UHGV virus genome: UHGV-0087833
Source of the DNA: a virus
Direction: 5' to 3' (one strand)
Length of the DNA: 39,497 nt
Shown: piece by piece, positions 2,496 through 26,784 of the stretch
Numbering within the stretch: position 1 is the first letter of the stretch
Layout: each line of letters begins with the position of its first letter
Translations under genes and position numbers: made by a program
The notes under the pieces: generated by a model
What the model saw: only the letters and a program-made list of their open reading frames with translations
Database searches by the model: none
Told to the model about the DNA's origin: nothing

Positions 2496-5270
2496 TTACA
2501 CTCCTGATACTTCAATAGATAGTTGAATCTTATTTGGCATCTTGTTGCTTAAATATATGGTTGCAAAGTCAAACGAAATATTTAAGTTATTTTCATCACC
2601 ATCATTATCTGAAAGAACTCCGGTTTTCAATACAACATTTTGCTTATTAATTTCTTTTAAAGGAGAAAAATCAATTGCCTCACCACGATGAATAAGAACA
2701 CCAACTGCAATTACCCCATGAATATCAAGTATGTCGTGCATATCAAGGCGAACACATGGGACATATCCACCAACAAGGATACTTGTAGATTTGTTGGCTT
2801 CAAGTGTTATTAGATATTTTCCGTCTGGTTGAACTATTGTTCCTGCTATTCCATCTGGCGTGTTGAACATACCGCAGTATCTGTATCCTGCTCCAACAGG
2901 AACAATTCTGTTACCGCCAAGATCATGGAAATTTCGAACAATTATTGCACCAGGAACTGATGAATAAACCATTACTGCCTCTGTTTGCCCTGATACAGAG
3001 TCTGATGTTTCTGGGTTCGCCATGCATAAATTACCACCAAAATAAATATTTTGGATTAGAGGGGTGAGGCCATCATTAACCTCAAAACGTAAAAAGCCCT
3101 TGAGAACAGTCCTTGCGGTATTATTCTTAATAACAACAGGAAGTTCTTTATAGTAAGAGTTTCTGTCTGTCTGTGCCAGAGTTGTTTCAATAAAAACAAA
3201 AGGTCTGTGATTACGTTGAGTTGCATTCACAGGTTTGTACCTCAAGTTGTATGGCAAAGACATCTCAGTAAAACCATCAATATAATTACAGTTCTGAATC
3301 GTGAACCCACCACCACTATATCTTACAAAAAAAGGAGCCGGTCCGCTAAATCCCCTGGCGTTCATTCCATCATACACTTCATTTAATCCGCGTATTACAC
3401 CAGCATAATACAAATTGACTGAATTGCCGCCTGTAAAAGTTGTTTCGTATGATGGGCCGTGTCCACCGCAACATGAATTTCTTGTATCGCCATCAGGGAA
3501 AAATTTAACTCCATCATATGCAGTTCCACCACCCATCATCGTTGGATTTATAATGTTATTATACAGTGATACCATTTGAGTCCCGCTTACATCAAGCCCC
3601 CTCCTGCAAGCAAATGCTATCATATCCACGACTGTGCAATAGCTGCTATTGTATATTTCAACACCATAACCAGTGCCGTTTGTTAAATCATATGCACGGT
3701 TTGAGTATTCAATATATGGCTCTATTATTTTCGTTCTGTAGCATGACTCAAGAAAAATTCCAGTTTCTGAAAAGCCGATTAGTTTTATTCCTTCTATATG
3801 CATATCAACAGCGCCATCTATCACAAGACCACGGAACCCCAAATCACCAGGAGATGCGTTCTGCGTGACAGGTCTTTCAAAATTGAAATCACCGACAATT
3901 CTGCCGTAGCATGGTTTTCTTTTATATATATTTGCCTTTCTTGTGATTTTAAACACGTCTCCAACAGATGGTTTAAACGGGAATGGTCCCTGAGCATATT
4001 CAAATTTTGCTGTTTTAGTGTCGTAATCCCAATGAGTTATGTATCTTGATATTCCGGCGTTAGCTCCGGTGACACCTGTTACTTTTACCTGATTGTATTG
4101 TTTTGTTAATGTTGCATCATTACCAAATGAGAATTCACCTCCGGATACAGATGCTGTTACGGTCGTTGAGTAATCATTGCTCGCAGAGTAGAAAAAATAA
4201 AATGCACCTGATATCTCCGCTTTTTTTGTTGCATTATCAAAAGCAGTAACAACATGCATTTCACCTTCACAAGCCTGTCCTCTATTATCTGTCTGAATTA
4301 AGCGATTGCCATGAATCATAATTATATCGCCTGCATCAACAGAATATGCTGAGTTAATTGATATTGATGTGTCACCAGGATTTATTGTTGAATTATAGTC
4401 AATTGGCGTGGCATCTCCACCTTCGAGTCTTATGAAATAATCATCAATCCAGTTTGGGCCAAGAGGCTCTTTTGCGGTTGACTTTAAGACAACCTTGCCA
4501 TCAGCTACCCAGTCATAGTTATAATTATCCCCGCCGCATTTTATGCGGCTAATCAAATACACACCAGAATCCCACTTCAGGCGTTTTCCGTTAGATGCGC
4601 AGTAAATGATGGCATTTGTTATTGCGTCTGTATCGTCAGTAATGCCATCCCCTTTTGCACCAAAATCGCGAACATTGACGATATCCCGCATTTTATCCTG
4701 GAACGTTCGGTACACAGCCCCAGAACCATACTGAATAAACCAACCAAAACCACCAACAACCCCGGCGATTGCAGCATCGACATAATTACGCATTGAGCGA
4801 TTATTTACAGCGTCCTGCTCAAGTGATGGATCTGCAAGGTTAGAAATTTTGTTTTGCTTTGCATCGTAATATTTTGCAAGCAAAGATGGTTTCATCAATG
4901 CACGTCTGAACCACCCAAAACATCGCTGGATCAGCATCGTCAGGTAGTCAAATGCATCTTCATGAACTTCGGGGAAAAATTTTCCCTGATTGCGAAGATC
5001 AGTCTCCTGCACCACATCAAGCACACGCTCTATCGTAATTCGCCAGCCAGCAGCAAGCGGCGACGGGAGAACCACTTCACCGCCACTATAAGTGCCCGCT
5101 CCAGTTACCTTATAACCGGTATCCAGAACCAATTCTGTTACGTTCCCGTTCAGGTCAGACACCTGAACAACCAGGTCGGTTTTTTTGAAAATACGGAAGG
5201 TATACGGAAATGATGTCGTAACGCCGTTACCGGTGTATTCGTTGTGGTCAACTTCGGTTGAGACCGTCAT
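2496..5270 (-). CDS. Tailspike / tail fiber protein
   Basis: 924 aa; N-terminal tail-attachment-like domain (YTGNGVTTSFPYTF), long beta-rich body; sits between ejection proteins and lysis genes. Confidence 0.85.
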   Translation of the reverse strand: MTVSTEVDHNEYTGNGVTTSFPYTFRIFKKTDLVVQVSDLNGNVTELVLDTGYKVTGAGTYSGGEVVLPSPLAAGWRITIERVLDVVQETDLRNQGKFFPEVHEDAFDYLTMLIQRCFGWFRRALMKPSLLAKYYDAKQNKISNLADPSLEQDAVNNRSMRNYVDAAIAGVVGGFGWFIQYGSGAVYRTFQDKMRDIVNVRDFGAKGDGITDDTDAITNAIIYCASNGKRLKWDSGVYLISRIKCGGDNYNYDWVADGKVVLKSTAKEPLGPNWIDDYFIRLEGGDATPIDYNSTINPGDTSISINSAYSVDAGDIIMIHGNRLIQTDNRGQACEGEMHVVTAFDNATKKAEISGAFYFFYSASNDYSTTVTASVSGGEFSFGNDATLTKQYNQVKVTGVTGANAGISRYITHWDYDTKTAKFEYAQGPFPFKPSVGDVFKITRKANIYKRKPCYGRIVGDFNFERPVTQNASPGDLGFRGLVIDGAVDMHIEGIKLIGFSETGIFLESCYRTKIIEPYIEYSNRAYDLTNGTGYGVEIYNSSYCTVVDMIAFACRRGLDVSGTQMVSLYNNIINPTMMGGGTAYDGVKFFPDGDTRNSCCGGHGPSYETTFTGGNSVNLYYAGVIRGLNEVYDGMNARGFSGPAPFFVRYSGGGFTIQNCNYIDGFTEMSLPYNLRYKPVNATQRNHRPFVFIETTLAQTDRNSYYKELPVVIKNNTARTVLKGFLRFEVNDGLTPLIQNIYFGGNLCMANPETSDSVSGQTEAVMVYSSVPGAIIVRNFHDLGGNRIVPVGAGYRYCGMFNTPDGIAGTIVQPDGKYLITLEANKSTSILVGGYVPCVRLDMHDILDIHGVIAVGVLIHRGEAIDFSPLKEINKQNVVLKTGVLSDNDGDENNLNISFDFATIYLSNKMPNKIQLSIEVSGV

Positions 5271-5374: not shown

Positions 5375-5389
5375 TTACCTTTCGGGTAA
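5375..5389. promoter_or_regulatory. Operator palindrome TTACC-tttcg-GGTAA (site 1)
   Basis: Perfect 5+5 inverted repeat with 5-bp spacer between divergent tailspike and ant-operon starts. Confidence 0.6.
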
Positions 5390-5769: not shown

Positions 5770-5855
5770 ATTTACATCGCACTCCTCTTGTGCCATAGTA
5801 ATCGGGCACTGGCAAAATCCAGTGCCGGGATTGGCGTCCCGGGTTACTACAGAGG

Positions 5856-5887
5856 CACATATGCCGCATAAGCGGTTTTTTTATGTG
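5856..5887 (+). terminator. Hairpin plus T7 run inside the ant leader (intrinsic terminator/attenuator candidate)
   Basis: CACATA...CCGC-ataa-GCGG-TTTTTTT-ATGTG; upstream hairpins at about 5803-5826 and 5827-5844. Confidence 0.45.
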
Positions 5888-6035
5888 TAAAGCGCACCTA
5901 TTCTATGGTGGGCTGTGTGGGGGCACCGAAAGGTGCGCCGGGTCCTTTGTAGCCGGTTACGCCAACCCTGCACAGTTCACCACCAACCGATTGGCGTCGG
6001 TAGTGGTGATTAACCTAACTACAAAGGTGATCACT

Positions 6036-8165: not shown

Positions 8166-10640
8166 TTATTGCGGAGTGACATCCTGAGGTCGCCACCAGT
8201 ATGTCTGGTTAAACTCTTTCTTCGAACGTTGCTCCATTTTACGCAAATAGCCTGGTGAAAAATACTCCTGCATCTGATTAAAGATCATGTGATCGAGAGC
8301 CGCCTTCAAGTACCAGAGATTCGCACCAGGCATCAAACCTTTCCCAAGCTTAACCAGATCACCACCAGTCTGCTCATTCTTCCCTTCCACAGCATTTAAC
8401 GGTATGCCCTGAGCAATCTTCACTACGTCATCAACCAGACCAGCTACCGGGCCAAGCATCGACGCTAGTGCGCCGCTCCCGTACCTGGTGTGGTCAGAGA
8501 AAAGAAAATCACCATACAACCCTGCCCCACCACCTTTTAAAAATGCATTTATCCAGAATTTAACCATGTTGTCACCGGTCATTTCTTTTGGATTTCTCCC
8601 ATTAATAAGATCAGTAATCTGCATGGAAAGAGCACCAAGCATGGTTGTGCTTGCTAAAAACGTTGCTATATATGCCGCACGCCCACCAGCAGACGGCATC
8701 CCCATAGCTCTATGCCAGTGACGCATAACTACCGAGATAGGGAACGATTTAAACAGGAAAACACTTCTCGTTAATTCACCTTTCCATGTTCCACGCTGAA
8801 GACCAGACCCTACGAACATCTGTTCACGTGCGCCCGGTGTAATAACAGCCATATCAACTTCTTCAGTTACGGCACCGAGCAGTTTACGCATTGCCTCAAA
8901 TTTCACGCGTTCAGGCTCACCAAGATGTTTAACTGCTGAATCAGGGATACGCATAATGCTTTCCGGTGTCAGCATCGTATTATTACCGTTCCCCCAGTCC
9001 TCCTGTTGCGCCAGCTTCCATACGCTCCAGTCTGTGTCAGTAATCCCTTTGCTTTTCAGGATACGAAAATCAGAGTCATCGAGGCTACGAAGGTCTGGTG
9101 TCCGTGACACTACTTCTCCCAGGCTTCCCATCATGGTTACGCCATAGGCGCGCTTGTGCGCATCTGACCATGCTGTAAGCCCACTGGCACGCATTACCGC
9201 CGTTGCCGCCCAACGAGACACAGACGGCCCCATATTATCCATCGCCCAGCGGTTAACGCTGCCAAGTAGAGATTCCATCGCCAGGCCAGCGCGGCGCGCC
9301 CGCGCAAGTTCTGTACGGTTCGTTGGGTCCATAGCTTCAAGCTGGTTGCGAAATAACTGGTTCATTGGAAGGTTGGTAACCTTCGCAGACAGATACATGG
9401 TTCCAAGATCAGAGAACGATGACAGCAACGCGGATCCGAGTCTGCTGGCAACCAGCCAGTTGCGGATATTGTCAGACCATCGCGCGATGTGCGGATTCGC
9501 TACAGGCTGTGTCTTTCCGGAAATAAAGTTGTACAGATTCTCTGTGTTGTTCGCCAGCCGCTCGACTTTACCGGTTTTACTCGGGTTAGCTGTTGCCGTT
9601 TCTGCCTTAACCTGATCAAGAAGGGAGCGGAAAACATGATCGGGGTTTGGACCATATGTTTCCACCAGAGCAATATCTTTACTGATACCTTCCAGGTGAC
9701 CGACCATGATTTCCCATAGAGAGCGATCGCCATAAAGTTGTTGATATTGGAGATAGGAATCTGCATCTTTGAAATGTATCTGTCGTGATGCATTACCACG
9801 GTTAGCACGTGCGCCGGAAATTCGCATTCCGGTATCAGTAAGCTTATTCAGCCCACCAGTAGCGATCGTGTTATAAGCCTCTCCAAGAAATGCAGACAAC
9901 TCGGCATCGTTCATCAGTTGTCCATCGGCTCGGGTATAATATTTGCGATCCAGCTTACCTATAACATCGCTAACCCATTTATCTTTTGATACCGCCCCAA
10001 CCTTTTCCATAGAATGATGTTGAGGGATCCCCCAGTTTTCGAGATAGCCAATGTCCCCACCAGCATCATTAAACCGGCGGCGCAGTAGATCTGTCACTTC
10101 TCTCCACGCCTTAGCACCTTTTCTTGCTTTAGCATTGCCAGTATTTTGCCCTCGCATTTCATATACCAGGTCACGCACGCCCGCTTCATCTTCAAACAGG
10201 CCAAAAAAGCGAGGATCAACTGCTTCAAATGCCTCCTGCAATTGACTCAATGCATAATCACGAGTGGCTTTTGTTCTGGATTCAACAGAGAGGAAATTCG
10301 ATTTACCGTCTGCATTAAAAGCAATAGTACGGTTAAGAGCGCCAAGTTTCCCATCAGCCCCTTGATAGCTATTGATAAATTTATCCAATCTCTGACGTGC
10401 GGCTATAGTGAGGGCCACACGACGTTTCTTTAATGCCGCTTCTCGCTGTAATTCTTCAGATGCCAATTGTGCTGCACGATACAACCGTTCTGATTCGGAA
10501 AGTTGTCGCCACGACATAGGGTCATCACGAGCAATGGAGCGCATATTTCGATAAATGCGGTCTTCAATGTTCTGTATTTCTCGCGCCGTTAACGTGCGCT
10601 GCGCCGCCTGCTGGACCGCTTGTATACATTCCTGTCTCAT
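8166..10640 (-). CDS. Internal virion / ejection protein (T7 gp16-like position)
   Basis: 824-aa ORF, last of the run of large proteins downstream of the tail tubular genes. Confidence 0.6.
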   Translation of the reverse strand: MRQECIQAVQQAAQRTLTAREIQNIEDRIYRNMRSIARDDPMSWRQLSESERLYRAAQLASEELQREAALKKRRVALTIAARQRLDKFINSYQGADGKLGALNRTIAFNADGKSNFLSVESRTKATRDYALSQLQEAFEAVDPRFFGLFEDEAGVRDLVYEMRGQNTGNAKARKGAKAWREVTDLLRRRFNDAGGDIGYLENWGIPQHHSMEKVGAVSKDKWVSDVIGKLDRKYYTRADGQLMNDAELSAFLGEAYNTIATGGLNKLTDTGMRISGARANRGNASRQIHFKDADSYLQYQQLYGDRSLWEIMVGHLEGISKDIALVETYGPNPDHVFRSLLDQVKAETATANPSKTGKVERLANNTENLYNFISGKTQPVANPHIARWSDNIRNWLVASRLGSALLSSFSDLGTMYLSAKVTNLPMNQLFRNQLEAMDPTNRTELARARRAGLAMESLLGSVNRWAMDNMGPSVSRWAATAVMRASGLTAWSDAHKRAYGVTMMGSLGEVVSRTPDLRSLDDSDFRILKSKGITDTDWSVWKLAQQEDWGNGNNTMLTPESIMRIPDSAVKHLGEPERVKFEAMRKLLGAVTEEVDMAVITPGAREQMFVGSGLQRGTWKGELTRSVFLFKSFPISVVMRHWHRAMGMPSAGGRAAYIATFLASTTMLGALSMQITDLINGRNPKEMTGDNMVKFWINAFLKGGGAGLYGDFLFSDHTRYGSGALASMLGPVAGLVDDVVKIAQGIPLNAVEGKNEQTGGDLVKLGKGLMPGANLWYLKAALDHMIFNQMQEYFSPGYLRKMEQRSKKEFNQTYWWRPQDVTPQ

Positions 10641-10645
10641 TTAAT

Positions 10646-12448
10646 TTAACCTCTCAAGAAACACGCCACAGCGACATCAAACAGGCTGGAATCCTGTATT
10701 GCCTGCTCACTTTCCCTGTTCGCTTCATCCAGCACTTCACGCGCGCTGCGCGATTGTGGATTACCATCATCATCCAGCACGGTGATTATCATGTCAGGTG
10801 ATTCAAGCAGCGAGTCTTCAGCTATGCGCAGATCAATATCTCCTGCCTGATCCGCCATCATTTTTTGTTCTGCATGTTGCAATATTTTATCAGACTCAAA
10901 AGGAGCTACTTCGTCTGGCGTCCTGACCTCTGCTGTTTTATAGAATGAAACAGCCTGAGCATTAAGTTCACTTTCTGCCTGCTGTCTCCGAGCCAGTTCT
11001 GCTCGAGCTTCAAAAAACTGACCGCCAGGCTCATGCGGTGCCAACGCGTTACGGGAAAATTCCAGGCGTTCTTGTGCCTGCCGGATTCGTTGTTCAATAT
11101 CGCGAATTCTGGCCTGTTTATCTGATCGAGCACGAGACAAAGCTTTACCGCTACCAGTTGGCTCTTCTGCAAGAATTTGTGCACGCTGTTCAGTGAGATT
11201 TTCAATAATTCGTTGGCTATTAGCGATTTCAGACTGGTAAACCTGTCTATCTCCACGCGGCAAAAGCTGCGCGGCCTGTTCTTCAAGCAACCGATTTTCT
11301 ATAGCGCGCGCCGTTACTCCATCATCTACAGATGACAGAGCCTCATTAACTGCCTGAGACAGCAGACTCTTGCGCCCAGGAATTTCACTGAAAGATGCAG
11401 ACTCAACAATGCTGGCAACGTCTACAGGTCTCCCCTGGCTAACATCAGACATAGCTTTTCGCAGAGCCTGAATGTGAGAATTGCGCGAAAGCACGTTGAT
11501 CGGCACGCCGGGCGCAATATCAATTTCAGCATGATGAGCGGCATTCGCCGCCAGTGCAGCATCAACATCAACTGGTGAAAAATTTGGTGCGCTTGTAGAC
11601 TCGCCGCGAGAGTTAATAAATCTGCCGACTCCACCAAAAGCCACCCCAAGAACAGCATCAATAGCAATTGCCTGTCGATCCAACACATCATACTGGTTAG
11701 CCATTTCGCTATAGCCACCATCACGAAGCGTTTTTGCAGTAAGCCCGCGCTGTGCCATACCGAACGCAATATTTGTACCTGCGGCATAGGCAATATCTGG
11801 CGTTGCACGTACTGCTGTTGCCGCGGCGCGTCGCACTGAACTTTCACCCGTCCGCGCAAGCTGAGCCGCCACACCTTCCGCCAGCGCACCACCAGCACGT
11901 AACCCGAGACTCATAGGGATCAGTGTTCCGGCACCAGCAGTAATACCCTGCACTAATCCCGCTTCCTGCGCCGTCCTGAAATCAACCCCCTGCGCTGTCA
12001 GTCGTTCAAACTCAGAAAAACCCTGTAGCGAAGTTACCGCCGCAGCACCTCCGACCGGACCACCGAGCGTTGTACCGACAACAGCCTGCCCGCCCATATC
12101 GAACAACCCATAAAGAACCTGCCCTGCGGTTCCGGTTGTCGCGGCATCAGGCGTCAGCCGCTTAACCTGCTGCTCTGCTAGTTTTCTCTGCTCGGCAATG
12201 TATGAAACTGAAGTGTCATTGAGCGAGGTGTTTTCGTTAACAAACTGAGCAATCGGGGATACGATTTTATCCATCCCTGCCCATAGCAACTGATCTGGCT
12301 TTGCCACCAGCCCGGAGTACAAACCAGACAATGCCGCTCCTACAGCATTGTCGAAAAAACCAACATCGCTGTTAAAGCCAACTGGATTTGATGCTGCTTC
12401 GTCAAGCTGCTGATTCTGGTTTACTGGATTAAGGCCAAAGTAACTCAT
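10646..12448 (-). CDS. Internal virion / ejection protein
   Basis: 600-aa Ala/Gly-rich ORF within the internal-core gene block. Confidence 0.6.
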   Translation of the reverse strand: MSYFGLNPVNQNQQLDEAASNPVGFNSDVGFFDNAVGAALSGLYSGLVAKPDQLLWAGMDKIVSPIAQFVNENTSLNDTSVSYIAEQRKLAEQQVKRLTPDAATTGTAGQVLYGLFDMGGQAVVGTTLGGPVGGAAAVTSLQGFSEFERLTAQGVDFRTAQEAGLVQGITAGAGTLIPMSLGLRAGGALAEGVAAQLARTGESSVRRAAATAVRATPDIAYAAGTNIAFGMAQRGLTAKTLRDGGYSEMANQYDVLDRQAIAIDAVLGVAFGGVGRFINSRGESTSAPNFSPVDVDAALAANAAHHAEIDIAPGVPINVLSRNSHIQALRKAMSDVSQGRPVDVASIVESASFSEIPGRKSLLSQAVNEALSSVDDGVTARAIENRLLEEQAAQLLPRGDRQVYQSEIANSQRIIENLTEQRAQILAEEPTGSGKALSRARSDKQARIRDIEQRIRQAQERLEFSRNALAPHEPGGQFFEARAELARRQQAESELNAQAVSFYKTAEVRTPDEVAPFESDKILQHAEQKMMADQAGDIDLRIAEDSLLESPDMIITVLDDDGNPQSRSAREVLDEANRESEQAIQDSSLFDVAVACFLRG

Positions 12449-21954: not shown

Positions 21955-22247
21955 TCCTGTTCACTGGCCTCTTTGGCCATCTTCAAATACTGTTCAGGGC
22001 AATGCGCCATAACGCGCTGAAACAGTTCCAGCGCCAGATTGCGTTGCCCCTCATTAAATGCCATTGCCATAGCGTCCATCGGTGAGATAGCGGAAAACAC
22101 ACGGCCTTTCTCCAGCACCGACCAGACAACGCGACGCCCCTGTTCACTGCTCATGACAAAGCGAATGTCATCAATTTCACGCTGTGCCATGTCACGTTGC
22201 TTACGGGCGTTTTCTTCTTTCAGTTGATCATCTTCGTAATCTGTCAT
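21951..22247 (-). CDS. Hypothetical head morphogenesis protein
   Basis: 98 aa, overlaps portal stop and scaffold start. Confidence 0.4.
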   Translation of the reverse strand: MTDYEDDQLKEENARKQRDMAQREIDDIRFVMSSEQGRRVVWSVLEKGRVFSAISPMDAMAMAFNEGQRNLALELFQRVMAHCPEQYLKMAKEASEQE

Positions 22248-23923
22248 TGTGATTGCCCACCCTGACCACTAACTGCATTCGCCATAGCTGACAAAACACT
22301 CGGATCCGAAGTTTTAGCTTCGCTTAGCGTCTTGGCGCCCTGTGCCGCCGCCATTCCCATCGCCATCATTTGTTGCTGCTGTTGCTGCTGTGCCCGTTGC
22401 TGGCGAGCCTGCTCAACCTGTTCCTGCGGAACAATGACGGTTGGAGACACTCCGGACATATCAGCGAATGCATCGATCGCCTGATCAACATTGAGTTTGT
22501 CGAGAGCTTCTGGTTTCGCTTGCGCAAGTTGACCAATGAAGTTGACCGTAGACGCCAGACTGGACAGGCCGATAGACTTCTGCGCCTGAGCCATGACGGA
22601 AATGTATTCGACCTTCAGGGGCATACCTTCCATCGCGTCAGGCGGTGGCGGCAGCATGTTTTTACGCACCATCATCGAGAAAGCGCGGTCAATGAGAGGA
22701 TTAAGACATTCGTCGTTCAGACGCTCCAGAACCGGCCCCAACATCAGAAGTTTTTCTTCTTTCATTTCGATCACCGCTTCAACAGGCATCGAGCGGGTAT
22801 TGATGTTCTGCAACATCATGAACAGATCGACAAAGTAGGCGCTGTTAATGATTTGACGAGTGTCCTGAATGTCTGCCACCAAATCTGCTGTACTGGGGTT
22901 AACCAGATAAGCAGGCCTGAAGCCATCCTGACCAGTAATCTGATCGATATACGTGATGTCGCCAGGAAGAAGGGAGGCGCGCTGATTCTTGAGGGAAGTC
23001 GGAGCAACCATCGGCGGATTGGTGGCTTTATCAATCAACTGCGACTTGCGCTTCTGGAGAAGCTGCAATGCCTTAACAGGTCCAAGCGCCAGCATACCCG
23101 GGCATGATGATCCATAAACATCTTCGCCGTTAACTTCCCAGCGCGGAGCCATAATTGGAAACTCATCGAATCCGGACTCACGCAACAACTTGTCGTTATC
23201 TCCACCAACCTCGTAATAAACCGATTTGAATGGCTTGTTCTTGCTATCCAGCTTCGATGTATCGCGGTCAATGTTCGGGTAAACCGAATGCATCACTTCG
23301 ATCCACTTCTCGTAGGTGCCGCTTTCCCACATGCTTTTTACGGATTCGCTGACGTTATTTAGTCCGAATTCCTGAACAAGCTGACGAACAGTCATAGAGA
23401 ACTTGCGAAAACAGGTGTCCACACTGCCACGAGGTGAGTTAGCCAGGTAGTAACTGCCTATCGGGAATGGCATTGTGCGAATGATGTCCTCGTCATCCTC
23501 CAGCACTGCCATTGCACCAGTGCTGTATGTGCCGAGGCTTCCGTATAACTGCGGAAGAGACTGGTAGAGATTCGACTTATTGAACATATCGTTCATGCGG
23601 TTCTGAACTGCCTCAAGCCACAACTTAACAGGGCCATAATCCATCATTTCAGGATCTGGCGTAGCCAGGCGAAACCACGGACGCGCAGGGCTTGTGATGC
23701 CTGACATCATGCCGCTGGCGAGAGTGCGCGCCGCCATAGTCCCGGTCGAATCAATAATGCGTGTATTGCGTCGATCGTTACGGTTGACCTCAGAAGTCAG
23801 AAAGCGGGAACCACGCGGGTTGATGTAATCACTCAACTCGCGCCAGTGCGGCTCGAACGACTGACGCTCGCTTTCAAGTTGTGCGAACTGTTTGTTCAAT
23901 CGCTCTTTAGTTGTTTCCGCCAT
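22244..23923 (-). CDS. Portal protein
   Basis: 559 aa following large terminase; poly-Gln tract near C-terminus. Confidence 0.8.
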   Translation of the reverse strand: MAETTKERLNKQFAQLESERQSFEPHWRELSDYINPRGSRFLTSEVNRNDRRNTRIIDSTGTMAARTLASGMMSGITSPARPWFRLATPDPEMMDYGPVKLWLEAVQNRMNDMFNKSNLYQSLPQLYGSLGTYSTGAMAVLEDDEDIIRTMPFPIGSYYLANSPRGSVDTCFRKFSMTVRQLVQEFGLNNVSESVKSMWESGTYEKWIEVMHSVYPNIDRDTSKLDSKNKPFKSVYYEVGGDNDKLLRESGFDEFPIMAPRWEVNGEDVYGSSCPGMLALGPVKALQLLQKRKSQLIDKATNPPMVAPTSLKNQRASLLPGDITYIDQITGQDGFRPAYLVNPSTADLVADIQDTRQIINSAYFVDLFMMLQNINTRSMPVEAVIEMKEEKLLMLGPVLERLNDECLNPLIDRAFSMMVRKNMLPPPPDAMEGMPLKVEYISVMAQAQKSIGLSSLASTVNFIGQLAQAKPEALDKLNVDQAIDAFADMSGVSPTVIVPQEQVEQARQQRAQQQQQQQMMAMGMAAAQGAKTLSEAKTSDPSVLSAMANAVSGQGGQSQ

Positions 23924-23937
23924 TTCAATGACTCCGG

Positions 23938-24144
23938 TTACTGACCAAGCAGCGTTTTACCGCTGGTATTAGCGGTTGATGTGTCGCCCTGAGAACCGGT
24001 AAGCAGCGTAGAACTACGACCAGCAGCAGCGCGACGGCGACGTGTTTCTTCGTCGCGGGCATCAACAACGGCGGCATCCTGCTCCTGTGGTGCTGCCTGA
24101 ACTTCTGGTGTTGCAGGCACTGATGGTGAGCTACCCATGCACAT
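23938..24144 (-). CDS. Small hypothetical protein upstream of portal
   Basis: 68 aa, low-complexity, GC-rich; GGAG RBS; could be non-coding. Confidence 0.3.
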   Translation of the reverse strand: MCMGSSPSVPATPEVQAAPQEQDAAVVDARDEETRRRRAAAGRSSTLLTGSQGDTSTANTSGKTLLGQ

Positions 24145-24234
24145 ATCAATGACTCCGTACGCAATTAAATCATTACCAATTTAACCACATATGATTTATT
24201 TATCGTAGAATGTTGACATTTAACGCGTGAATTA

Positions 24235-24249
24235 TTACCTTTCAGGTAA
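24235..24249. promoter_or_regulatory. Operator palindrome TTACC-tttca-GGTAA (site 4) next to TTGACA
   Basis: Perfect inverted repeat; TTGACA at 24213-24218. Confidence 0.55.
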
Positions 24250-24571
24250 CTAAAGAGCTCATTCTGGTTACTAACCTGACTGGCTTGTCGTTAAATTAAA
24301 CAGGTGGAGTGAGCTTTTATTTTGAGCAGTACGGCGTATGGCACATGCGCCGATAGCGGTCTGGATACGTTTAAGGGGCACCCTCCCTTGCTCGGGCAAA
24401 CGAACCAGGTAGCCGGAATGTGCAAGTCGAGCGGTTTTATTCCGCGCACGGGGATTCACCATCCCGGCGATTCGGTGTGACGCCTCGGAAGAGACGAGGG
24501 TACAACGATGAGAGCATTTATGGAGCCGCGACAAAGTGTGGCGCCTTAACAGGCTAAGTGCTCTCAGCGTT

Positions 24572-24648
24572 GTGGCATTAGCTCAGTCGGACAGAGCAAC
24601 CGCCTTCTAAGCGGTTGGTCGCAGGTTCGAATCCTGCATGCCACGCCA
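24572..24648 (+). tRNA. tRNA-Arg (anticodon UCU, reads AGA)
   Basis: 7-bp acceptor stem GTGGCAT/ATGCCAC, T-loop GGTTCGAATCC, anticodon loop CTTCTAA, encoded CCA. Confidence 0.9.
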
Positions 24649-24846
24649 GAATCACGCCTAAGGACCGTGATGCCAGAAGTTCCAGGGGCTTGGCGGTGAT
24701 GGTTTCCCTTGAAGGACTATCACCGCCCTTTTTACAGCAGGACGCCATTGCGATGACTTCATGCTGTAAACCCGTACAGCCACGGAAGGCATAACTCATT
24801 GCTTCCAGTTCGCCCGGTTCGCCGGGCATTTTTTTAAGGTGAGATT

Positions 24847-25218
24847 ATGAACGACAAGCAAATCGAAAAAGAAATCGTTGAGAAAGGCAAAACGGCACCG
24901 CGCGTTACGCCAGACCATATCGAAGGCATTATTGCTCAGGAGGCATATTTCACAGCAGAAGATGGTGCCTTTGGCAAAGCCATAAAAGCGAAACATACTG
25001 GCGGAGAGGTAAACTACCAGCCGCACGAATCACTTTCTCTGCTGACGTTCTGCGTCCTGGTGCTGCGCAACGGCTTCACCGTCACCGGAGAGAGCGCCTG
25101 TGCAAGCCCGGAAAACTTTGATGCAGAAATTGGTCGGAAGATTGCCCGGCAGAATGCTGTAAACAAAATCTGGATGCTCGAAGGTTACTTGCTGAAGCAG
25201 AAGCTAAGCGAGCAATAA
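24847..25218 (+). CDS. Phage protein, Gp49-like
   Basis: 123 aa with AAGGTGAG RBS; family assignment from memory. Confidence 0.5.
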   Translation: MNDKQIEKEIVEKGKTAPRVTPDHIEGIIAQEAYFTAEDGAFGKAIKAKHTGGEVNYQPHESLSLLTFCVLVLRNGFTVTGESACASPENFDAEIGRKIARQNAVNKIWMLEGYLLKQKLSEQ

Positions 25219-25222
25219 CACC

Positions 25223-25234
25223 GTGACATGTCAC
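25223..25234. repeat. Perfect palindrome GTGACATGTCAC (copy 2 of 3)
   Basis: Sits 4 bp after the Gp49-like stop and 4 bp before terminator hairpin. Confidence 0.8.
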
Positions 25235-25238
25235 AAAC

Positions 25239-25265
25239 AGCCAGCCGATGAGCTGGCTTTGTTTT
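25239..25265 (+). terminator. Rho-independent terminator of the tRNA / Gp49-like unit
   Basis: AGCCAGC-cgatga-GCTGGCT followed by TTGTTTT. Confidence 0.7.
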
Positions 25266-25308: not shown

Positions 25309-26784
25309 TTAAGCATAGGGATCGTAATCTGTGATGGCCTTGCCTTGCTGGTTCTGCTGCCCGGGAATTCGCAGACGCTTCGACACAGGGAACGCAAACG
25401 TCAGCAGTAGCGCATCGCCTTTACCAGGCGAACGCCCAAGCCGCTCCTTGATATCTTCCTTCGGTTCGATAACGATTTTACCGTCCACTCGAACTTTGTA
25501 CTCTGCCGCCGACAGATCGTCCGCTGTTTCCTGGTCATCCAGCATCCCGCCCAGCCTCAGCCATGTCTTGCATGAGTTGAACATCTCCCCACGCTTGTTG
25601 AGCATCTGCTGGTCAGTAGACGCGCCACCGAACGGAACAAGTTGCCATGTACGACCCCAGCCGTCACCGATTGACTTCAAACCGGTTCCGTAACCGAAGT
25701 CGATGAACACCGCGTCAGCCTGATACTGGTCTTCAAAGTCAGCGATACGCTTCGCCATAATCAGATCGTCGGTAGTCTTGTTGCCAGTCCACAGCACCTT
25801 ACTGTGTAGCCCCTGCCGCAGGTATATCACAGCGTCATCAACGCCGGAGTATGCCGGGTCAACGCCGATTATCACCGGAGCATGTGCAACCTGCGCAGCG
25901 GTGACCACCCGTTTCATTGCCTCGTCAGTAAGTCCGGTAGGGATAAACTGCAATTCAGATGCATCCGGGAATATGCCGCGCACACGGATTTTAACGAAGT
26001 CGCTGTCTTCCCCGTAGTCATCAACCCATTTCTGCAACTGCTGTTTGTTAGTGCCTTCCACCGTCCGGCTGTCAATCTGCGCAGTTTTCCAGCGGTGTTT
26101 ATATTTGCGGAAACATTCGCGGAAACGCCCGGTGTTACGTGTAGGGTTTCCGAACGCCACCCAGATAATCTCAGTGTCTTCGTCCGTAAGCGCACCCTCA
26201 GCAACTTCCCACACCAGATCCGCAATGTTCGACGCTTCATCGAATACCACGATGATGCGTTTGCGCTCGTTGTGTAGTCCGGCGAATGCCTCAGTGTTGT
26301 GCTCAGACCAGGGGATTGCGTCAGCTCGCCACCGCTTGTCGTGCCCAGGATCATTGCTGTACATCGCGGTAGCGGTACAGGTAAACCAGTCTTTCGTGAT
26401 AGCAAGGTTCGACCACTTGATAATTTCCGGCCAGGTCTTCGTTCGTAGCTGGTTGTCGGTGTTGGCGGTCACCACGACCTTACAATCCTCGCAAGTGGAC
26501 ATGCCCCAGTTGATCAGCATTGAGATGAATGCGGATTTACCAATACCGTGACCAGAAGCGCGTGCCAGCATAAGCGGCTGATAGCGCGTCGCTGGATTCT
26601 GCAGGTGATCACGTATCTCTCGGAACGCATCAGCCTGCCACTGACGTGGGCCGGTAGCATGTGCCAGTTCAGTCCCTTCTTCCCCCCACGGGAACGCATA
26701 GAGGGCATAGCCAAGCGGATCGTGAGTGAACCCTGCAATATCCTCGATCAACTGCTCTTCAGGAGATAACGCTGTATCTGTCAC
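25309..26784 (-). CDS. Terminase large subunit
   Basis: 491 aa; Walker A-like ASGHGIGKS; acidic nuclease-type C-terminal half. Confidence 0.9.
   Translation of the reverse strand: MTDTALSPEEQLIEDIAGFTHDPLGYALYAFPWGEEGTELAHATGPRQWQADAFREIRDHLQNPATRYQPLMLARASGHGIGKSAFISMLINWGMSTCEDCKVVVTANTDNQLRTKTWPEIIKWSNLAITKDWFTCTATAMYSNDPGHDKRWRADAIPWSEHNTEAFAGLHNERKRIIVVFDEASNIADLVWEVAEGALTDEDTEIIWVAFGNPTRNTGRFRECFRKYKHRWKTAQIDSRTVEGTNKQQLQKWVDDYGEDSDFVKIRVRGIFPDASELQFIPTGLTDEAMKRVVTAAQVAHAPVIIGVDPAYSGVDDAVIYLRQGLHSKVLWTGNKTTDDLIMAKRIADFEDQYQADAVFIDFGYGTGLKSIGDGWGRTWQLVPFGGASTDQQMLNKRGEMFNSCKTWLRLGGMLDDQETADDLSAAEYKVRVDGKIVIEPKEDIKERLGRSPGKGDALLLTFAFPVSKRLRIPGQQNQQGKAITDYDPYA

Follow-up and report, generated by a model that had tools for sequence, protein, structure and literature searches.

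The structured RNA described here, about 165 nucleotides (nt) long and hereafter called the core, is encoded at positions 24332..24499 on the plus strand of the viral genome UHGV-0087833, whose 39,497 nt constitute the window under analysis. The window is a Uetakevirus of the phiV10/epsilon15 type, and the 1.2 kb around the unit that carries the core are 95.5% identical to phiV10. Following the phiV10 annotation, this plus-strand island is placed between two minus-strand genes, those of the portal or head-to-tail joining protein (22244-23923) and of the large terminase, terL (25309-26784). The original prediction had proposed here a separate opposite-strand unit with its own TTGACA/operator region and terminator, an AGA-reading tRNA and a Gp49-like gene, preceded by a leader of ~320 nt that it took to be, possibly, either a precursor of the tRNA or a non-coding RNA not recognised so far, and all the parts of that unit could be located at the coordinates given.

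The unit opens with a promoter-like site on the plus strand (24213..24241), read from the sequence as TTGACA (24213-24218), a 17-nt spacer and a weak -10-like TACCTT (24236-24241). The same arrangement is kept at other Uetakevirus-type loci; a consensus promoter scan of the window made no call at this TTGACA/TACCTT site. The -10 is overlapped by the palindrome TTACCTTTCAGGTAA (24235..24249, with no strand), and the pattern TTACCT-N3-AGGTAA is present at 11 sites in the window against 0.05 expected, so that it constitutes a genuine operator family and bears out the operator that had been claimed. The copies start at 5375, 5755, 6795, 24235, 31047, 31109, 33392, 33440, 34152, 34214 and 39296. 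Presumably they form the operator set of the repressor and mark all repressor-controlled promoters of the phage; in epsilon15 the corresponding spacer is annotated with sites for a repressor and for IHF. The first part of the leader (24250..24331, plus strand) is conserved among Uetakevirus loci only, and similarity across the whole family begins at ~24331.

After the core and a long helix called Module A comes the tRNA-Arg gene with anticodon UCU (24572..24648, plus strand), which is called by ARAGORN and by the Rfam tRNA model RF00005 (73.3 bits). Two plus-strand terminator-like hairpins follow, T1 with a 14-pair stem (24692-24727, with a T run to 24735), homologous to hairpins retained in epsilon15 and other Uetakevirus loci, and T2 (24812-24827, with a T run to 24836), which leaves 10 nt up to the start codon of the next gene, the Gp49-like one. 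This gene (24847-25218, plus strand) encodes 123 amino acids (aa) and belongs to the Gp49 / Sf6 gene 66 family (PF13876 Phage_gp49_66, 119.5 bits, cut-off 27); the phiV10 annotation describes p03 as similar to Sf6 gene 66. A final terminator-like hairpin (25239-25258, with a T run to 25265), found in the plus-strand scan with no strand given for the element, is located between the converging plus-strand unit and terL, and is annotated in phiV10 as a rho-independent terminator on the opposite strand.

An alignment of the core (A1, built with MAFFT from 31 diverse copies) revealed invariant blocks and, between them, hairpins of variable length and sequence. All the elements of the fold are on the plus strand. 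It starts with hairpin P1 (24332-24352), followed by helix P2 (24360-24363 with 24406-24409), which encloses variable hairpins. The invariant 19-mer GGUAGCCGGAAUGUGCAAG (24408-24426) leads into a further variable hairpin (24427-24449) and P4 (24451-24454 with 24462-24465), the loop of which forms a pseudoknot with a downstream GGUG (24457-24460 with 24474-24477). P5 (24483-24487 with 24495-24499), with the loop GAAGAGA, closes the domain. The invariant unpaired stretches are AGCGGUC, GGUAGCCGGAAUGUGCAAG, GGCG, GGUGUGAC and the GAAGAGA loop. With ~50 invariant unpaired nucleotides and a pseudoknot, the fold argues for a specific molecular partner.

The structure tested was drawn manually, with four helices and the pseudoknot. 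In A1, 94.3% of the core pair cells are paired, compared with 29-54% when the partners are slid, 11 core pairs change on both sides, and the observed pairing values are reached in 0/500 shuffles. A blind all-against-all covariation scan of 95 distinct sequences recovered P1, P2, P4, P5 and the pseudoknot, a pair of which is C-G in 74 sequences and A-U in 17; the G-U pairs of the core are consistent with the plus strand only. These values uphold the suggestion that the leader contains an unrecognised non-coding RNA; the suggestion of a tRNA precursor leader also stands, for this lineage only, in which it lies between the promoter and a same-strand tRNA. With the covariance model built for the core (R1), the window copy reaches 149.5 bits and is the only one in the window, with no second, putR-like copy there or in the whole genome of phage cdtI. 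A long-range GCACAU:AUGUGC helix proposed by RNAalifold in competition with P1 was rejected, both of its sides being invariant whereas the local P1 covaries. The family was collected mostly through the exact 19-mer, so the invariance of that block is partly by construction; the 19-mer is also intact in 13 copies derived from BLAST, and one copy found only by R1 differs at two of its positions. The comparative evidence shows that the core is a genuine RNA domain of the plus strand, non-coding, folded with a pseudoknot and sharply bounded.

As had been stated before, the leader holds no convincing open reading frame (ORF). There is one frame of 87 aa on the minus strand, and there are two, of 52 aa and 45 aa, on the plus strand; none is conserved, since any anchored frame is open in at most 10 of 31 family members. 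The core lengths in the 31 sequences are not multiples of three and are mixed modulo 3, and a protein-coding leader was rejected on both grounds. An AGA-sensing leader peptide was considered as well. A mini-ORF inside Module A (24508-24549, plus strand; AUG AGA GCA UUU AUG ... UAA), with GAGG 8 nt upstream, carries the rare AGA as second codon just before the AGA-reading tRNA; because its AUG is missing in many Module A variants, the peptide was rejected and the coincidence of the two is probably fortuitous.

AGA accounts for 6.8 per 1000 codons and 11% of the Arg codons in the window ORFs, a higher usage than in E. coli K-12, and this share makes a supplementary tRNA-Arg(UCU) plausible; the original prediction had called the codon rare in enterobacteria. 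AGA is concentrated in a few large minus-strand ORFs (2496-5270, 8166-10640 and 10646-12448), and in a 924-aa ORF 15 of the 42 Arg codons are AGA. Such AGA-rich ORFs are likely clients of the phage tRNA.

In the following, L-numbers label the individual loci or contigs compared; L005 is cdtI, L307 is LLS, and L006/L003 are epsilon15/VB_ST_E15. Rfam 15 returned the tRNA only over 24100-24900 at E <= 10, and only C4, isrK and the tRNA over the whole window at the gathering score. Nothing was returned over the element at the related loci L005, L015 and L109, and none of the Rfam ribozyme, intron and insertion sequence (IS)-associated RNA families matched it. The original prediction had named, as a result that would speak against it, that Rfam and conservation show no structured element; Rfam indeed contains none, whereas conservation does reveal one, with clear covariation. 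No paper containing the invariant 13- or 15-mers was found in a literature coverage that leaves out key older papers, nothing relevant was found on P1/ban or on Stx2c phages, and the paper on Uetakevirus ZX5 is silent on the region. As far as these sources reach, the core RNA is new to databases and literature, and it appears in no annotation seen here.

The two other RNAs in the window form a pair at 5806-5987 (plus strand), with the isrK Hfq-binding RNA (74.7 bits) directly before the C4 antisense RNA (79.5 bits). This pair corresponds to an immI-like module of the P1/P7 type, with operator copies nearby at 5375, 5755 and 6795, and is also present in the lambdoid phage cdtI (L005 277-465).

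A sensitive BLAST search with 24200-24575 as query found intergenic matches beyond the Uetakeviruses at ~70-83% identity, in the lambdoid phages mEp460, cdtI and Stx2c- and Stx2a-converting phages (Stx, Shiga toxin), in P1/P7/D6/SJ46/RCS47, in Klebsiella and Enterobacter phages and in one phage listed for Stenotrophomonas. The exact 19-mer GGTAGCCGGAATGTGCAAG is found in at least 120 viral contigs. With the 250-nt query covering core and Module A (24326-24575), 1840 of 5426 complete E. coli genomes give a match, on chromosomes and on P1-like plasmids, and none of these is annotated except for the tRNA. Among contigs taken from one genome per species there are 23 R1-confirmed matches, from Enterobacterales save one 1.7-kb contig binned as Bacillota; the remaining 17-mer matches in this set were discarded as chance.

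The genomic contexts fall mainly into three types. In ~63 of 133 loci a gene for a helix-turn-helix (HTH)/S24 repressor ends a median of 125-160 nt upstream on the same strand, the lambdoid arrangement after cI and the early-left promoter (PL). About 30 of the 133 are Uetakevirus-type, with the tRNA-Arg starting 164 nt after the 19-mer start, and ~18 are P1-type, with a tRNA-Ile(CAU) just upstream and, in some contigs, within larger tRNA arrays. No tRNA is adjacent in ~70 of the 133, and the tight link between core and tRNA is, over the loci compared, confined to the Uetakevirus lineage. In phage P1 the core is placed between trnI and ban, in the C1-controlled ban operon, and in Lastavirus SopranoGao after the lysis genes. 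The order in cdtI is the cI stop codon, a terminator, a near-consensus PL with operators, the core, Module A, two terminator-like hairpins and the first gene of an early-left operon of the yfdP/yfdQ type, in which no N gene is annotated.

The -10 element ends ~8 nt before hairpin P1 in L011 and L021, and promoter-like sites upstream of the core are found at 0.99 against 0.04 per kb. Over the 500 nt that follow the core, strong terminator-like hairpins on its strand reach a density of 1.69 per kb and are present in 46 of 71 contexts; control regions on that strand have 0.23-0.74 per kb, and the opposite strand has 0.50-1.04 per kb. In every case the element lies in untranslated sequence; its orientation is always sense, nearly always near an early promoter or within an early RNA/tRNA operon. 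Repressor control is backed by the operator in the window, the PL operators of cdtI and the C1 operators of phage P1, and is assumed for the other loci. Going beyond the original prediction, the element is thus distributed as a portable one, shared with lambdoid phages and P1 and specific neither to this unit nor to its tRNA.

Module A (24503..24572, plus strand) is located directly after P5. It is a long helix of CAACGAUGAGAGCAUU paired with AGUGCUCUCAGCGUUG around a variable distal insert, and in its last pair (C24503-G24572) the partner of C24503 is the first nucleotide of the tRNA. The helix measures ~18 bp with one mismatch in the window and is maintained through many compensatory changes, 15 of 20 pairs changing on both sides in sequences that had been pre-selected for complementarity. 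In L011 an independent Module A-like helix abuts a sequence that reads like a tRNA 5' end. The 3' strand is often UGCUCUUU, which is boxA-like (UGCUCU(U/C)), the window version being UGCUCUCA, and in many phages this strand is followed by a tail made up of the GU-rich GUUGUGGUGAAU and the small hairpin GCGCA-GGCUGA-UGCGC. A boxA function of the strand was rejected because its bases are paired within the helix and variable across the family. So were tRNAs in the inserts, some of which have T-arm-like sequences yet give no ARAGORN or Rfam tRNA call.

The tail motif, GUUGUGGUGAAU plus hairpin, is widespread in its own right as well as together with Module A, with or without the core. Both are seen in L307 (LLS; 11900-12300, minus strand) and in many of L308-L407. 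In L339, L371, L380 and L407 the tail motif is placed directly at the transcription start of PL, and elsewhere it occurs in arrays after terminators. Rfam gave no match to Module A and tail at the three loci scanned (L005, L015 and L109). From their nut-like appearance, Module A and tail may be the early antitermination site of lambdoid phages without N; if antitermination operates in these leaders, this more universal pair would be a better candidate site than the core.

Other modules could be seen in the same leaders. Module B, an alternative conserved 3' module (AUAUCAGCCAUUCACG.UAAGCAUC...GGUGCUUAGCGGGACUGGAAGAGUUACCACUUGGAGACGGUCC...), replaces or precedes Module A in L013, L009, L041, L042, L070, L080, L103 and L139 and is probably another unannotated structured RNA. 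Motif X, (A/C)CCAC(C/U)G(A/C)GCCUGAUGUGGU(G/U)AAAAG(A)CAGGC, allows a small pseudoknot to be drawn, with the pairings ACCAC:GUGGU and GCCUG:CAGGC; some phages have it ahead of the core, and LLS has it with no core (L094 3120-3160, L183, L038, L032 ~4165-4200 and L307 ~12230-12270). A 47-nt stretch just after the tail hairpin in L109 (3971-4017), also seen in L396, matches small-subunit ribosomal RNA (rRNA) (Rfam SSU, E = 1e-7) and, compared by eye, looks similar to about positions 240-290 of E. coli 16S rRNA; it lies in a Uetakevirus-type leader with two Module A units. Module A, the GUUGUGGUGAAU and hairpin tail, motif X and module B expose a wider set of early-leader RNA modules that had gone unannotated.

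The core itself is one exchangeable piece of these leaders. At least five continuations are found after P5, namely Module A, module B, the ban leader, an immediate terminator and a ribosome-binding site, and in nearly all cases a conserved junction links the core to Module A. Only 27 of the 63 conserved-tail sites with enough upstream sequence have the core. L339, L371, L380 and L407 contain a TTGACA-17-TACATT promoter with the tail within ~10 nt and neither core nor Module A, and the sequence downstream in L339-type contigs is the same as in core-bearing contigs of the L023 type. L368, of Uetakevirus type, has Module A and tail and no core. In phage LLS no core was found, its PL leader containing Module A, the pseudoknot-like motif X and terminators; the authors who described LLS found no N homologue and guessed at a put-like mechanism (PMC12315714). 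In epsilon15 a single deletion from ~24367 to 24697 (window numbering) has taken out the tRNA, Module A and the greater part of the core, while hairpin P1, annotated there as an RNase III site, a terminator and the Gp49-like gene are retained. This optionality rests largely on metagenomic viral contigs of uncertain viability.

In L094, L038 and L051 a terminator-like hairpin follows directly after P5. In L094 (3346-3382) the hairpin is followed by UGCUCUUUAACAA, the exact rrn boxA consensus, close variants of which are seen in L038 and L051, and serves also as a bidirectional terminator for an opposite-strand membrane-protein gene. In L032 a single early-left leader contains two consecutive cores (3994-4158 and 4801-4963, minus strand), the second of which differs in the otherwise invariant 19-mer (GGAAGCUGGAAUGUGCAAG). 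Behind each of the two lies a gene in antisense orientation that encodes a membrane protein of ~160 aa and may be a superinfection-exclusion moron. Other RNA pieces gather in the same slot, among them tRNAs, T-arm-like inserts with no tRNA call and the 16S-like fragment. Insertion in the manner of a transposon was rejected, as no consistent flanking duplication was seen. Judged by this distribution, the core is a portable module that recombines among unrelated enterobacterial phages.

The functional statements that follow are drawn from anatomy and context. It is quite possible, if still short of probable, that the core is an accessory, portable early RNA which is cut from its transcript and uses its invariant loops to act on a host component that is conserved, as a decoy in host takeover or counter-defence. 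This portable-RNA reading is ranked first because the core is dispensable in the sampled contigs and in LLS and behaves as a shuffled cassette travelling with tRNAs. Upon derepression or infection the RNA would be among the first products. In this phage a cut by RNase P at 24571/24572 would release a discrete leader of ~325 nt, and elsewhere the ends would be set by a start at P1 and by the adjacent tRNA, Module A or a terminator directly after P5. The folded RNA would then bind the putative host component through its invariant unpaired stretches, and would travel with the phage tRNAs. The core is probably not an obligatory control element of its operon.

Several points weigh against this proposal. 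Both the discrete RNA species and its target are predicted or putative. A site behind early promoters with terminators after it fits a cis element at least as well, and the conserved junction suggests that core and Module A may work as one unit in the nascent transcript. The argument from optionality leans on the contigs of uncertain viability referred to above. Release by RNase P is carried over from general tRNA biology, and a stable helix ending at position -1 could interfere with it.

The rival that survives best, although it seems unlikely to us, is a cis-acting processive antiterminator of the put kind, in which the nascent core, with or without Module A, would bind its own RNA polymerase and allow it to read through terminators. 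The promoter-proximal, sense placement in nearly all contexts agrees with this, and so do the excess of terminator-like hairpins after the core (1.69 per kb, above the controls; 46 of 71 contexts) and the order of promoter, element, T1, T2 and first gene in the window and in cdtI. N-like proteins were recognised neither among the downstream gene clusters nor in the annotation of cdtI, hairpin P1 shares ACGGCG...CAUGCG(U/C)CG with put stem I, and for such phages without N an RNA mechanism has already been suspected (PMC12315714). The distance is variable and a tRNA can intervene, which argues against a local switch of the riboswitch type but is compatible with a processive mechanism. However, sampled contigs and LLS keep a PL-type leader with terminator-like hairpins and no core, so that the core is seemingly not required for read-through there, and epsilon15, which has neither core nor Module A, still keeps a terminator and the gene. 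The short unit in the window converges on terL, and processive read-through would give antisense terL transcripts; in phage P1 the core is placed mid-operon, and in L094 directly before a bidirectional terminator and an opposite-strand gene. Finally, no statistical similarity to put was found.

With a good deal less probability, core and Module A could be a scaffold for processing or stability, shaping the 5' end of the precursor, guiding RNase P, III or E, or protecting leader and tRNA from decay or Rho. Here the geometry is suggestive, since the end of Module A coincides with nucleotide 1 of the tRNA, the independent helix of L011 abuts a sequence like a tRNA 5' end, and ~18 bp of Module A resemble rRNA processing stems; the annotators of epsilon15 put an RNase III site on the P1 region, and the element is always in untranslated stretches. 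Yet ~70 of 133 loci have no adjacent tRNA, sampled contigs and LLS do without the core, and a mere processing signal needs neither ~50 invariant unpaired nucleotides nor a pseudoknot.

More improbable still is a selfish or mobile RNA element (for example a ribozyme, the remains of an IS end or an insertion resembling an intron) that spreads from leader to leader among phages and is of little benefit to them. Its patchy presence among related phages as a discrete unit, the tandem copies in L032 and the GUUGU at both ends of core and Module A in L005- and P1-type copies would suit such an origin, but the left flanks differ between lineages, which implies no consistent target duplication, it is not accompanied by a transposase, a reverse transcriptase or a homing endonuclease, the Rfam families of ribozymes, introns and IS-associated RNAs give no match, and the orientation is always sense to the early promoter. 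Least probable is a ligand-sensing, riboswitch-like leader gating the early operon, for instance through Rho, for despite a riboswitch-like layout of promoter, conserved pseudoknotted fold, terminator and genes, the distance from the core to the terminators is 110-260 nt or more, exchangeable modules and even a whole tRNA come in between, no downstream gene or gene class is shared consistently, and the core is optional, so that a riboswitch class was rejected.

The RNA sits in well-studied phages (P1, Stx-converting and other lambdoid prophages, and phiV10) and in about one third of complete E. coli genomes, outside Rfam. Action in trans would make the core an early phage RNA effector of a new kind, perhaps the first counter-defence decoy that consists of RNA only and is borne by the immediate-early leader of temperate phages, P1 included. 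If it acts instead on RNA polymerase, it bears on the question, regarded as open in 2025 by specialists of lambdoid phages, of how those without N antiterminate (PMC12315714).

Among known RNA systems, several share individual traits with the element. GOLLD and ROOL are phage-associated structured RNAs of unknown function, often beside tRNA genes. Like them, the core is a structured RNA borne by phages and prophages and often found next to tRNAs; unlike them, it has no Rfam match, is much smaller and is promoter-proximal in early operons, and its R1-confirmed copies with a credible host all belong to Enterobacterales or their phages. Module A recalls the processing stems of rRNA operons, in that the flanks of a variable insert pair into a long helix, here beside a tRNA, but it reaches only ~18 bp with one mismatch in the window, and no RNase III cleavage is known here.

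With lambda nut and the rrn leader antiterminator the leaders share the early position and the boxA-like Module A strand with its tail hairpin, and the exact UGCUCUUUAACAA after the hairpin that follows the core in L094, with close variants in L038 and L051, is a further likeness to rrn boxA. In contrast to nut, the boxA-like bases of Module A are paired and not conserved, the window has a tRNA in the place of the hairpin, and the core has no nut features. No N-like protein was seen among the downstream and neighbouring gene clusters or in the cdtI annotation, no dedicated search for N having been made.

The put RNAs of HK022 and HK639 are protein-independent processive antiterminators that depend on the zinc-binding domain of the RNA polymerase beta' subunit. 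For the comparison, the annotated putL of HK639 and the putL located in HK022 were used, and five put sequences were aligned. R1 found no match in HK639 or in the PL region of HK022 (24-31 kb), a put profile hidden Markov model (nhmmer) found none in 88 cores, and Smith-Waterman alignments of core and put gave z ~0 against shuffles; with the covariance model, the profile and the local alignments all negative, membership of the core in the put family was rejected. The stem I motif CGGCG...CAUGCGUCG in core hairpin P1 covers 15 nt only, was chosen after being seen and is a gapped pattern common in large collections, and a scan of the collection with the shared 6+9-nt motif gave mostly chance matches, so it is taken as a lead only. 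The core also departs from put in size and complexity (~165 nt, five helices and a pseudoknot, against ~65-70 nt and two stems), in being single-copy and optional in sampled contigs with the same kind of leader, and in occurring outside lambdoid phages. Nevertheless, like put, it is placed just downstream of a repressor-controlled early-left promoter in lambdoid phages without a recognised N gene, as a structured sense-strand RNA with invariant unpaired nucleotides and with terminators after it. There is a minor chance that the core, with or without Module A, represents a second class of RNAs, structurally unrelated to put and much larger, which reprogram E. coli RNA polymerase independently of proteins; in that case a polymerase-reprogramming core, or Module A and its tail, would account for early-left operon expression in lambdoid phages that have no N.

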